This document shows, one piece after another, positions 14,654-22,387 of a stretch of 64,000 nucleotides of DNA. The first letter of the stretch is position 1. Each line of letters begins with the position of its first letter. Below the pieces are notes generated by a model, which worked only from the letters and a program-made list of their open reading frames with translations, had not been told where the DNA came from and did no database searches. The stretch spans positions 2,758 through 66,757 of the forward strand of contig JBMOLK010000188.1 in the NCBI GenBank assembly GCA_049325575.1. The letters run 5' to 3'. The position numbers and the translations under genes were made by a program. Source of the DNA: Bacillota bacterium. Lineage in GTDB: Bacteria; Bacillota; Clostridia; Acetivibrionales; Acetivibrionaceae.

Positions 14654-17600
14654 ATGGTGTTTAGGGGGGAGAATATGAGTAATGTTGGTATGGAAAATAA
14701 GGTTAAGCTTTATCCACTAACCCATCCTCAAAAGAGAATATGGTATGGGGAAGTGCTTAATAAAGATACTTCCCTTTACAATATCGGAGGACCTGTAAGA
14801 ATAAGGGGATATGTAGATTTTGGTACTCTGCAGCAATCCATAAACATTTTTATAAAAAAGAATGATAGCTTAAGGATGCGGTTTAATGAACAAAACGGTG
14901 AAATAAAGCAGTATATTAGTGAATTCAAAGAGACTAAAATAGATTTTTTTGATTTCAGTACATGCAAAAATCCTGAAGATGAGTTTAACAAGTGGATAGA
15001 ATACGAAGCCGGTAAGAGATTTGACTTAAAAGAAGATTATTTATATTATTTTGCAATGTTTAAAAATGGCGAGTACGATTCCGGATACTTTGTTAAATTT
15101 CATCACTTGATAGCCGATGGCTGGTCAATGCAGATTTTGACAAGCCAGATTTGTGATATTTACATGAAACTTTTACATGGCTCCAGGATAGATGAAGAGG
15201 TTGAATATTCGTATTTAGAATATATTGATAGGGAGCAGAAGTACTTATTATCCGATAAGTTCATTAAAAACAGGAATTTTTGGAAACAAAAATTTCAAAC
15301 ATTGGATGAGGTGTATTTTGGTAAATCTTCTGAAAGCATCAAAGGGAATAGAAAGACTTTCAGGATGGATAAGGATAAATCCCTGAAGATAAAAAACTTC
15401 TCAAAAGAAAATAAATGCTCCTTGAACACACTGTTTGTTTCCTTATATTTAATCTATTTGTATAAGACAACACAACATCAAGATTTGATTATTGGAGTCC
15501 CTGTACTAAATAGATCAGGAAAAAGAGAAAAAAGCATATTTGGGATGTTTACAAGTACAATGCCTTTTAGAATGTATATAAAAGGCTCAATGACGGCAGC
15601 AGAATTTATAAACCATGTAAACAGCGAATTGATGGAATGCTATTTCAATCAGAAATATCCCTATGATCTTTTGGTGCAGGATATTGAGCTTAAGAAAAAG
15701 GGCTATAATGAGTTGTTTAATGTATGCATTAATTATTATAATACCAGGCTTAATACCGAATTTAACGGTGCTTTAACAGAAAATACGGAGTTTTATAATG
15801 GGAATCAGCTTTATTCGATGCAGATTGTTATTAAAGAATGGGAAGACTTAGGAGAAATAAACCTGGACTTTGATTATAAGTCAGGTGATTTTAGTGAAGA
15901 ACAGATCGAAAATATGTACATGTATTTAAGTAACCTGATTGATCAGATTACAGCAGATTCAATGGCTGTTATCGGATCGTTAAGGCTGCTTCCCGACTCT
16001 TCCAGGAACAGACTCATTTATGAGTTTAATTCAACATGTGTAGATTACCCGAAAAACAATACAATATTCCAGCTGTTTGAGGAGCAGGTTTGCAGGACAC
16101 CTGATAAGACTGCGGTAAGCTTTAATGGGAAAAGCATTACTTATAGAAAGCTTAACAAAAAAGCAAACCAACTTGCCAGACTGTTAAGATACAAAGGTAT
16201 TGGAAGAAATACTGCTGTAGGATTTATGACAACCCACTCAATAGAAACTGTTATAGGAATCCTGGGTGTTATAAAAGCAGGGGGTGCTTATGTGCCTATC
16301 GATCCCTGCTATCCTATGGAAAGAATAAACTATATCCTTGAAGATTCCAAGGTATCAGTTCTGCTTGCCAATTGTAGTCTGGATGGCGGTTTGGATTATA
16401 AGGTGGATATTATTGATCTTAGGGATGAAACCATATATAAAGGTGAAGCAAGTAATCCTGATTTAATAAATGAAATGAATGACCTGGTTTATATTATTTA
16501 TACTTCAGGTTCTACAGGAAAGCCTAAAGGCACAATGATAGAGCACAGGGGGCTTGTTAACTATATATGGTGGGCAAAAAAGATGTATGTAAGACATGAG
16601 GATGATGTTTTTGCGCTTTATTCTTCTTTATCCTTCGATCTTACAGTAACCTCGGTTTTTACACCACTTATAAGCGGGAATAAAATCATGGTTTATGCAG
16701 ATGACGGCGAAGAGTTTGTTCTTTACAGGATACTTGGAGATAATCAAACTACTGTTCTAAAGCTAACACCGGCACATTTATCATTGATTAAGGATTTGGA
16801 TAATAGTAATTCATCAGTTAAAAGGCTTATCGTTGGAGGAGAAGACCTAAAGGTTGTTCTTGCGAAGAGTATCTATGACAGCTTCGGAGGAGACATAGAA
16901 ATATTTAATGAGTATGGCCCTACAGAGACAGTGGTTGGCTGTATGATCCACAAGTATGATGTTGAAAAAGATACTGAACAATCAGTGCCTGTTGGTATAC
17001 CTGCTGATAATGTGCAGATCTATATTCTTGATAAAAATCTTGAGCCTGTACCTTTAGGAGTAAGCGGAGAAATTTACATTTCGGGAGATGGTGTAGCAAG
17101 AGGTTATCTGAATAGACCGGAGTTAACAGCTCAAAAGTTCATTGACAATCCATTTATTAAAGATAAGAGAATGTATAAGACAGGTGATATTGCCAGACAC
17201 CTGCCTAACGGTATAATTGAGTATTCAGGCAGGGCAGACTTTCAGGTTAAGATAAGAGGTTACCGTATCGAATTGGGTGAGATAGAGAATCAGATATTAA
17301 AAATAAAAGGTGTTGATGATGTTGTAGTTATAGACAGGGAAGACTCTTTAGGCAGCAAATACCTGTGTTCATATATTGTTTCAAAGGTACAAATGCCGTT
17401 AACAGAGATAAGGCAGTATTTGTCAGGTGTTTTACCTGATTATATGATCCCATCAAGGTTTGTATCCTTAGATAGAATTCCCCTTACAACCAACGGGAAA
17501 GTAAACAGACAGCTTTTACCCGAACCTTTGGAGGAAAATATTGATGAATCTGACTGTGTTTGCTTTAATAATAAAACAGAAGAAAAGATTATAAAAACTA

Positions 17601-22200: not shown

Positions 22201-22387
22201 CCCGGAGTTTAGGAAGTTCTTTTACCAGGTGCTTCTTCCGGATATGAAGAGAAGAGGGAAGTGCATAATCGCCATAACCCATGATGACAGATATTTTTAT
22301 ATTGCAGATAAGATGGTAAAGATGGAAGCAGGAAAAATCGTAGATGAAAAACTTGATAATACCTTTGACAATACCAGTGCCTCGTAA
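19232..22387 (+). CDS. fusion of an S12 (beta-lactamase-fold, ClbP-like) peptidase to an ABC exporter (TMD+NBD); ZmaM-like
   Basis: N-terminal TM anchor, then STSK (SxxK), YSTVNYDVLG (YxN) and HAG motifs. These are followed by ~6 TM helices and an NBD carrying GGNGSGKST, LSTGQKKRLAL and LLDEWAADQD. Confidence 0.75.
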   Translation: MVFKTRKIIVSIVAAVYIILTIVCQAGAGVEPSDSSIKEDNEAKILKIEKFIKSQMKKAKIPGMSVVVMKDGKILLQKGYGFADINTKRPVTADTLFELGSTSKAFTALGILKLKKEGHISLDDRVDKYLPWFRVKYKGEYTGITIGDLLYQNSGIPASMLGRITPSVEDNALEDTVRKIVDIELEFLPGKRYSYSTVNYDVLGLIIQKISGKTFEDYLKDEILAPMGLDNTYVYREEALRHDMSKGHKYAFSRVVTYDAPVYRGNTPAGYVITNAKDLTRWLKIQMGIEHDLNFDTHLIKESHIPNRKVEPSSSLSSYAAGWHIFQSGEGEIGHAGANPNFYTYIGFRPGEKMGIAVLSNLYTSQTSVTYEGIKSILMDEEPKKENADSMQNLDKTFLVIICIAVPLIAITLIFIFIILVQLFKGMRKFVGFNAERVVKLIFSMAFMSVAAYAFYLIPQAFREFMDFSWDYVRVWGPVSIIPGIVLTFTACVMLYIYLITESMFPRPEEKPFFSLITVSLISGFANAFIIFIANSVLGDYRRTIFLKEEYQFPVEMLLYFIIGMTMYVYGQKLVRTRLINLINGYVYTTRTDLINRILSTTFYKMDSIEKGRIHACLNNDTESISRFARIVVGATTSFVTLVCCFIYLGFMNFSGFLTAFVVIVIAASIYFFIGRSANKFWEQTRDIQNVFFKFIGDLINGFKELNMNEAKRLDFKDDMTKSCADYREKRIMGDVKFANAFVVGEVIFTTVIGAVIFAFPLLFEEINGDTLGNFVFVFLYMTGPVNGLLSSLPEIMQVRISWNRINELIKDITLLESDSTKNKDDIQNFKRLELKDVEYSYKSNNGDIFKVGPINIVFHSGEITFITGGNGSGKSTLAKLITGLYVPDKGCITVNKSRINPEKLGQKYSAVFSDFHLFEKLYGLNYEEKQKDIENYLKIMQLEEKVDVRDGNLSTINLSTGQKKRLALMISFLEDRPIYLLDEWAADQDPEFRKFFYQVLLPDMKRRGKCIIAITHDDRYFYIADKMVKMEAGKIVDEKLDNTFDNTSAS

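Follow-up and report, generated by a model that had tools for sequence, protein, structure and literature searches.

Two adjacent genes in a 64,000-nt stretch of DNA (hereafter the window) from an uncultured Bacillota bacterium (GCA_049325575.1, contig JBMOLK010000188.1, positions 2,758 to 66,757) very probably constitute a type II (fused) cassette for an N-acyl-D-asparagine prodrug: a nonribosomal peptide synthetase (NRPS1), which would build an N-acyl-D-Asn cap, and a peptidase fused to an ATP-binding cassette (ABC) exporter, which would carry the capped precursor out of the cell and cleave it (Table 1). Both genes are known here from their sequence, a predicted structural model and comparisons with related systems. 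An earlier interpretation made from the DNA letters (the sequence-only reading) had suggested the same architecture, and as a prediction it was upheld by the signature residues of the peptidase, its ClbP fold, the D-donor type of the condensation domain encoded next, the synteny and the homology to ZmaO and ZmaM.

Table 1. Predicted features of the cassette and its surroundings in the window (A, adenylation; ACP, acyl carrier protein; AT, acyltransferase; C, condensation; DH, dehydratase; E, epimerisation; KR, ketoreductase; KS, ketosynthase; ORF, open reading frame; T, carrier; TM, transmembrane helix)
Feature	Position	Strand	Basis
UDP-galactopyranose mutase	10664-11809	+	Pfam
GT2 glycosyltransferase	11809-12981	+	Pfam
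BtrH_N / Peptidase_C39_2-like Cys-His-Asp protein, cytoplasmic, 535 aa, ends 10 nt before NRPS1	13037-14644	+	Pfam
Initiating NRPS (NRPS1), ZmaO/ClbN/XcnA type, C-A(Asn)-T-E, 1511 aa	14654-19189	+	ORF, Pfam, 47.8% identity over 1504 aa to ZmaO
N-terminal C domain, starter C by position	14708-16015	+	Pfam Condensation; HHLIADG at 15101-15121
A domain, code DLTKIGEVGK (Asn)	16076-17500	+	Read against GrsA-PheA; same code as ZmaO
T domain, GGDSI core at 17657-17671	17582-17770	+	Pfam PP-binding
E domain	17816-19180	+	Motifs, TIGR01720, solved E-domain relatives
Predicted fused prodrug peptidase/ABC exporter, type II (ZmaM/PamJ/EdeA), 1051 aa	19232-22387	+	ORF, Pfam, NCBIfam, ZmaM alignment, AlphaFold
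N-terminal hydrophobic helix (signal anchor or signal peptide)	19235-19303	+	Hydropathy peak aa 8-26; model helix 2-24
Extracytoplasmic S12 peptidase domain; S101, K104, Y195 catalytic; E98, T197, N266, N339 D-Asn pocket	19346-20365	+	Mapping to ClbP
ClbP-type three-helix membrane domain; W470, W476 in TM2-TM3 linker	20399-20743	+	phmmer, AlphaFold, Foldseek
ABC exporter membrane domain, six long helices	20768-21682	+	TIGR01194 (aa 557-1039); model helices
Nucleotide-binding domain, all motifs intact	21725-22354	+	Pfam ABC_tran; motif positions
Second NRPS (NRPS2), C-A-T; C domain at nt 22588-23910, D-donor (DCL) type	22555-26328	+	Pfam; solved C-domain scores
Trans-AT	26344-27621	+	Pfam
KS-DH-KR-ACP	27681-32498	+	Pfam
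KS	32431-34548	+	Pfam
A-T-C	34548-37703	+	Pfam
Half C domain + T	37800-38753	+	Pfam

Initiating NRPS and the predicted acceptor of its product

The Pfam E-values of the ORFs of both genes were far beyond chance. In NRPS1 the matches comprised Condensation at aa 19-454 (3e-163, in two stretches), AMP-binding at aa 475-819 (8e-81), AMP-binding_C at aa 876-949 and PP-binding at aa 977-1039. The specificity code of the A domain was extracted by alignment to GrsA-PheA positions 235-517, for which the reference segment gave the expected DAWTIAAICK. The resulting code was identical to that of ZmaO and fitted the pattern DLTK[IVL]GEV[GA]K seen at 64 of 70 loci with a fused peptidase-ABC gene. The classical Asn code, said to go back to Stachelhaus in 1999, is reportedly DLTKLGEVGK, from which the NRPS1 code departs by a single change, Ile for Leu. 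A predicted specificity of the A domain for Asn is thus supported.

In the last domain of NRPS1 all seven E-domain core motifs were counted (among them PIVSWF, HHLIVDG, EGHGRE, RTVGWFT, PNKGIGFG and FNYLG), and it matched TIGR01720 with 141.5 bits. When compared with solved structures, it scored 230-295 bits with the E domains of TycB, GrsA and TycA; all matches at E<=1e-8 were E domains, and no C domain was matched at that threshold. The domain is judged from these matches to be a genuine epimerase. The preceding T domain has a GGDSI core, as carriers feeding an E domain typically do. The C-A(Asn)-T-E organization given in the sequence-only reading is consequently retained on the evidence of the ORF, the Pfam domains, the A-domain code and the E-domain matches.

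The first C domain of NRPS2 gave 228-266 bits with C domains that follow an E domain (TycB1, McyB1, SrfA-C, PvdL, BacC) versus 114 bits with the LCL domain of TycC6 (C domains accepting a D-configured or an L-configured donor are denoted DCL and LCL, respectively), and the solved chains of PvdL and BacC each have their matched E domain directly before the matched C domain. It is the predicted acceptor of N-acyl-D-Asn. The A-domain codes of NRPS2 and of the later module were read approximately as DLKNFGT..K (second) and DAKDVGV..K (third), with no substrate assigned. The ~200 aa after the NRPS2 T domain (25600-26328, plus strand) had a weak partial Condensation match of 29 bits to profile positions 231-271; it may serve in docking or be a remnant.

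Layout of the fused peptidase-ABC gene

The gene lies on the same (plus) strand as NRPS1, from which it is separated by 43 nt. The profile searches proposed for it by the sequence-only reading found both expected halves, the S12-fold Beta-lactamase at aa 49-365 (4.8e-71) and ABC_tran at aa 855-986 (2.5e-24), while aa 557-1039 matched TIGR01194, 'cyclic peptide export ABC transporter', with 372.5 bits versus a curated cut-off of 286.2. The S12 motifs named beforehand were all in place (STSK at aa 101-104, YSTVNYD at 195-201 and HAG, continued as ANPN, at 335-341), and so were the ATPase motifs, i.e., Walker A GGNGSGKST (869-877), the signature LSTGQ (959-963), Walker B LLDEW (981-985) and the H-loop ITHD (1015-1018). 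The claimed fusion of an S12 domain to an ABC exporter in one polypeptide was thereby substantiated.

The AlphaFold model of the 1051-aa protein (pLDDT, the model's confidence score, 81.9) consisted of the N-terminal helix, the peptidase, three plus six membrane helices and the nucleotide-binding domain (832-1041). The ClbP-type helices were modelled at 390-424, 435-456 and 481-504, and those of the ABC exporter at 513-547, 555-599, 611-646, 657-708, 710-763 and 769-817. The exporter had initially been described as having six transmembrane helices, and this has to be corrected to nine helices after the peptidase (three of the ClbP type and six of the ABC type) in addition to the N-terminal anchor helix. 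The positive-inside rule, the hydropathy and the model all fitted a topology with the peptidase outside and the nucleotide-binding domain inside. The type II order of peptidase, nine membrane helices and ABC ATPase is hence present in one polypeptide. No structure of a fused peptidase-ABC protein was found in the PDB, searched both by sequence and with Foldseek.

Prodrug-peptidase signature

According to Velilla et al. (PMC9889268), prodrug peptidases carry the catalytic residues S95, K98 and Y186 (ClbP numbering), while N331, which confers the D-Asn specificity and is oriented by E92, is strictly conserved only in this group. The same study reports that prodrug peptidases have Ser or Thr at position 188, where S12 enzymes more broadly have Asn, that position 257 is occupied by His or Asn, and that the linker between TM2 and TM3 of the C-terminal three-helix membrane domain contains two tryptophans, W460 and W466. 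The ClbP numbering was rebuilt via a PDB alignment and then checked against the residues named in that paper. In the window protein the catalytic S101, K104 and Y195 correspond to S95, K98 and Y186, E98 and N339 to E92 and N331, and W470 and W476 to W460 and W466, while T197 and N266 occupy positions 188 and 257, both within the prodrug-peptidase pattern. The full signature of pocket, catalytic and Trp residues was kept in all 120 retrieved homologues and also in ZmaM.

The fold gave the same picture. The top Foldseek match of the model was full-length ClbP (7mde/7mdf), with a TM-score of 0.83-0.86 over ~477 columns that included the membrane helices, and the phmmer alignment to full-length ClbP extended to query residue 487. 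The prediction that the S12 domain is a ClbP-type N-acyl-D-Asn prodrug peptidase is supported by these results.

Comparison with known systems

The closest characterized relatives are ZmaO and ZmaM, encoded in the zwittermicin A cluster of Bacillus cereus and B. thuringiensis. NRPS1 aligned with ZmaO end to end, and GGDSI, EGHGRE and FNYLG are present in both. The peptidase-ABC protein aligned with ZmaM end to end at 45.8% identity over 999 aa, with the same fused architecture and identical catalytic, D-Asn-pocket and transmembrane Trp residues. The B. thuringiensis sequences were taken from plasmid pBMB431 (locus L119), which was found by tblastn of plasmids and on which zmaJ is annotated. 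Its zmaM gene opens with MKLNIWLKFIIL and has S89 within ELGSTSKAF, both of which fit the primers that Volpe et al. used to clone zmaM and to make the S89A variant. Another B. thuringiensis protein, P0060, was considered as ZmaM and rejected, its N-terminus mismatching the published zmaM primers. Volpe et al. (PMC9889270) showed that ZmaM, once purified, cuts an N-acyl-D-Asn probe and that a mass consistent with prezwittermicin accumulates when the enzyme is inhibited. In the zma cluster, in contrast to the window, the peptidase-ABC gene precedes the NRPS gene and a HAD-family gene stands between them. The assembly lines differ as well, that of the window being a short trans-AT polyketide synthase (PKS)/NRPS, and so do the hosts, the window originating from an uncultured, probably anaerobic, cellulosome-type Firmicute.

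NRPS1 shares the C-A(Asn)-T-E initiation logic with ClbN of the colibactin pathway (PMC8264950). ClbP of Escherichia coli has only ~29% identity to the window protein, although the residues listed above and the three-helix domain have their equivalents, except that ClbP has S188 and H257 where the window protein has Thr and Asn. ClbP is a stand-alone type I enzyme of ~500 aa which cleaves in the Gram-negative periplasm, and the colibactin exporter is a separate protein, ClbM (PMC9889268). In PMC4234257 the distinction between type I (XcnG) and type II (PamJ, with peptidase, nine helices and ABC domain) is ascribed to Reimer et al. 2011, and type I enzymes such as XcnG and AmiB are described there with a signal peptide, a peptidase and three membrane helices but without an ABC fusion. 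The same source gives PamJ of paenilamicin biosynthesis in Paenibacillus the peptidase, nine helices and ABC domain that are present in the window protein. PamJ, ZmaM and EdeA are also grouped as the long, ZmaM-like class in PMC9889268, and EdeA (edeine, Brevibacillus) resembles the window protein in this respect, while its product and host are different; PamJ and EdeA were likened by their published descriptions. The N-acyl-D-Asn cap-and-cleave logic is common to xenocoumacin (XcnA/XcnG) and amicoumacin (AmiB), and deletion of XcnG results in accumulation of the capped precursor. With PamJ, ZmaM and EdeA already published, the cassette is not a new architecture.

The C-terminal half of the window protein passes the cut-off of the TIGR01194 transporters, whose members, however, are plain half-transporters that lack an N-terminal extracytoplasmic peptidase and the three extra helices. 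This family includes exporters of NRPS products, e.g., PvdE, SyrD and YojI.

Distribution and synteny

More than 350 full-length fused homologues with 45-54% identity were found in Paenibacillus, Brevibacillus, Bacillus, Clostridium and Pseudobacteroides, and a scan of species-representative genomes (one genome per species) gave 403 related loci. Gene neighbourhoods were counted in the best 80 of the 403 loci plus three loci fetched earlier, which together included 70 fused genes. An A domain with the DLTK[IVL]GEV[GA]K code was located within 10 kb of the 64 fused genes mentioned above, being directly upstream in 37 of them. The first regular expression used for E domains across the loci was over-strict and caught 34 of 64, and end-to-end alignment to the 1511-aa query was the better indicator. 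In a library of representatives at 50% identity, 1931 clusters matched the peptidase plus membrane region at E<=1e-30; among the best 150 of these, 47 were fused and 92 stand-alone, and the signature was kept in both groups.

The order NRPS1, peptidase-ABC, NRPS2, AT, PKS recurs in many loci, of which the closest in synteny (L003, a metagenome-assembled genome (MAG) of Clostridia) has just 50-60% identity. Relatives of the cassette occur in Ruminiclostridium papyrosolvens C7, R. cellobioparum and Pseudobacteroides cellulosolvens. The sequence-only reading had regarded the system as uncharacterized in a cellulolytic Clostridium: in the literature searched, no paper tied an N-acyl-D-Asn prodrug system to Clostridia, but unstudied homologues are already present in sequenced cellulolytic clostridia.

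Nine of the 11 stand-alone homologues in the fetched set had no Asn-coded NRPS within 10 kb. Two loci (L022, from a MAG of Lutisporaceae, and L058) have stand-alone homologues of ~524 aa directly after NRPSs without Asn-coded A domains, and some of the stand-alone homologues may use another cap residue or serve another role. A split arrangement was seen in L086/L087, where separate genes for a beta-lactamase-fold protein (327 aa) and an ABC protein (801 aa) are followed by a C-A-T-E NRPS, an ABC exporter of 585 aa and a BtrH-like gene. In this locus the window peptidase with its three membrane helices (query aa 1-500) had no match at E<=1e-8, so that the 327-aa protein does not count among the close relatives of the ClbP type.

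Alternative explanations

Several observations weigh against the proposed cassette or its activity, and they concern the first C domain, the completeness of the pathway and the soluble part of the S12 domain. The first C domain of NRPS1 gave only ~100 bits with solved C domains of every subtype, including 7c1h, which we take to be a starter C domain. Because of these uniformly low scores, its assignment to the starter subtype rests on its place at the head of the first NRPS and on its homology to the C domain of ZmaO, with which it aligns.

The alternative that survives best questions the activity rather than the identity of the cassette, holding that the genes are genuine but the pathway is decayed or silent and no prodrug is made. 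No thioesterase was found by Pfam anywhere in 14.6-38.8 kb, and the last gene encodes only half a C domain and a T domain. Near 37.8 kb a ribosome-binding site (GGAGG) and an ATG at ~37727, the likely true start, open a 30-codon frame ending with ...ERSYWLNKLHG (the mid-C-domain 'YW' region), which continues in a different frame as the ORF 37800-38753, so that a frameshift is probable here. The missing thioesterase and this probable frameshift raise the possibility of an impaired pathway in this genome, which, moreover, is a MAG. At 39078-39413 (plus strand) only a truncated piece of a MoxR-like AAA ATPase, with a PDLLPPDLLPPDL repeat, is encoded; it is probably a pseudogene and adds to the appearance of decay. 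On the other hand, N-terminal half C domains also start large NRPSs in two other loci (L030 and L007) and may be a normal feature, while a single-base frameshift in a MAG may be an assembly error. The catalytic motifs of both cassette genes are all intact, their long ORFs are uninterrupted, and an Sfp-type phosphopantetheinyl transferase is encoded 24 kb downstream of the cluster (62193-62903, plus strand). Decay or silence is considered unlikely.

Much less probable is that the S12 domain is an ordinary hydrolase related to penicillin-binding proteins, AmpC or Flp (a cell-wall D-peptidase or an esterase) joined to a lipopeptide exporter, with N-acyl-D-Asn staying in the product. Flp of Staphylococcus aureus, an FmtA-like protein with the same S12 fold and 34% identity, was the top-scoring solved sequence relative of the soluble domain: in the PDB sequence search it stood marginally above ClbP (4gdn, 3e-58, versus 6e-57), and with a family profile of the soluble domain alone it reached 304 bits versus 276 for ClbP. 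The public annotation of the window protein, too, is just 'cyclic peptide export ABC transporter'. Since Flp equals or exceeds ClbP on the soluble domain, overall similarity cannot by itself place the S12 domain and was dropped as a test between the two types. Grouping with ordinary S12 enzymes, which the sequence-only reading had offered as grounds for abandoning its proposal, would therefore be an ambiguous test on the soluble domain, whereas ClbP comes ahead when the membrane region is included (327 versus 311 bits) or when structures are compared, with Flp ranking lower in Foldseek. What decided the identity instead were the signature positions, the presence of the three-helix domain, the predicted fold and the conserved gene neighbourhood. 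Flp has Asn, Asp and Leu at ClbP positions 188, 257 and 331 and thus no D-Asn pocket, as opposed to Thr, Asn and Asn in the window protein and ZmaM; its solved chain is without a matching membrane domain, and it has no association with prodrug chemistry. The strict conservation of N331 in prodrug peptidases, the ClbP-specific membrane bundle with both tryptophans and the tight linkage of the gene to Asn-coded C-A-T-E NRPSs all argue against an ordinary S12 enzyme.

Least probable of all is a genuine prodrug peptidase with a cap residue other than D-Asn (e.g., D-Asp or D-Gln), an option suggested by the L022 locus, where the first A-domain code of the NRPS before the stand-alone homologue is DLTKVGHVGK, presumably an Asp-like code, which makes cap-residue variation in the wider family conceivable, but opposed by the Asn code of the window A domain and by E98 and N339, whose ClbP equivalents enforce Asn over Asp.

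Proposed pathway and significance

In the proposed N-acyl-D-Asn prodrug scheme, NRPS1 would load L-Asn onto its own carrier domain, its N-terminal C domain would N-acylate the residue with a fatty acyl thioester, putatively from primary metabolism, and its epimerase would turn the residue into D-Asn. The D-donor-specific C domain of NRPS2 would then extend the cap, and the short trans-AT PKS/NRPS line would complete a capped, inactive precursor. The 1051-aa protein, presumably a homodimeric half-transporter, would export the lipidated precursor across the cytoplasmic membrane, while its S12 domain would be kept at the outer face by the N-terminal anchor and the ClbP-type three-helix bundle. 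There it would hydrolyse the amide after D-Asn, splitting off N-acyl-D-Asn and freeing the amine of the active compound. Inferred in this scheme are the donor of the acyl group, the cleavage itself, its coupling to export and the product.

New here are the host, represented by a MAG, and the product, which would be made by a short trans-AT PKS/NRPS line lacking a thioesterase; the architecture, the signature and the synteny have already been described. The mechanistic understanding of such systems is not changed by this cassette. The cap-and-cleave strategy marks clusters whose products are toxic enough to require self-protection, the known examples being colibactin, zwittermicin, xenocoumacin, amicoumacin, paenilamicin and edeine. 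The intact cassette in this uncultured, cellulosome-type Firmicute, a member of a group with few known natural products, points to a cryptic and probably bioactive metabolite. As no paper in the literature searched links this prodrug system to Clostridia, the host and product are unexplored territory of modest discovery value. The product could be revealed by ClbP-type acyl-D-Asn boronic acid inhibitors or by a search for free N-acyl-D-Asn, an approach that worked for prezwittermicin and preedeines (PMC9889268, PMC9889270).

Upstream genes and the rest of the window

Further upstream of the genes preceding NRPS1 is a sulphur-assimilation operon, which is closed by a terminator-like hairpin (10212-10233). 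Promoter-like sites in 9.8-27.8 kb were at chance level (63 found versus 63.6 expected), and only this hairpin stood out. Because of the tight gene spacing after it, the genes at 10664-14644 are possibly in the same operon as NRPS1. The pair of UDP-galactopyranose mutase and GT2 glycosyltransferase hints either at a glycosylated product or at an unrelated surface-glycan function.

The family of the BtrH-like protein has invariant C22, D24, D25, H128, H131 and D149, which fit a papain-like Cys-His-Asp centre, and the protein ends with an unrecognized C-terminal domain that has a conserved DNxxC.GQ motif. The pair of GT2 and BtrH-like genes recurs beside a peptidase-ABC gene in L085 (106-1215), with 67% and 44% identity, respectively. 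BtrH-like homologues in L034, L036, L067, L076, L085, L086 and L108 stand beside either a ClbP-like gene or an ABC gene with a C-A-T-E NRPS, and a profile search of the protein database found no further members. The gene was also considered as an accessory dedicated to the prodrug cassette, an idea rejected after a metagenome scan (32 loci), in which many homologues were beside NRPS genes without a ClbP-like peptidase and some had neither; the gene is not cassette-specific and was kept as an accessory of NRPS clusters. BtrH being an ACP-to-amine acyltransferase, one might by analogy speculate that the upstream trio belongs to the pathway, with the BtrH-like enzyme off-loading or transferring the carrier-bound chain in place of a thioesterase and the product being a galactofuranosylated, previously unseen kind of prodrug-activated metabolite, but this is a long shot.

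A three-gene block at 41408-49270 (plus strand) encodes a 209-aa and a 700-aa protein without Pfam match and then one of 1653 aa, in which AAA domains are combined with DUF3686 ('ATPase involved in DNA repair') and DUF7902; PADLOC gave no defence-model match for the genes in 41.4-51 kb. An Rfam scan of the whole window had no match. The host had been called a cellulolytic Clostridium in the sequence-only reading, presumably on the basis of a type I dockerin gene. An assignment to Clostridium is not established, but the small type I dockerin protein encoded at 52378-53139 (plus strand) fits a cellulosome producer.

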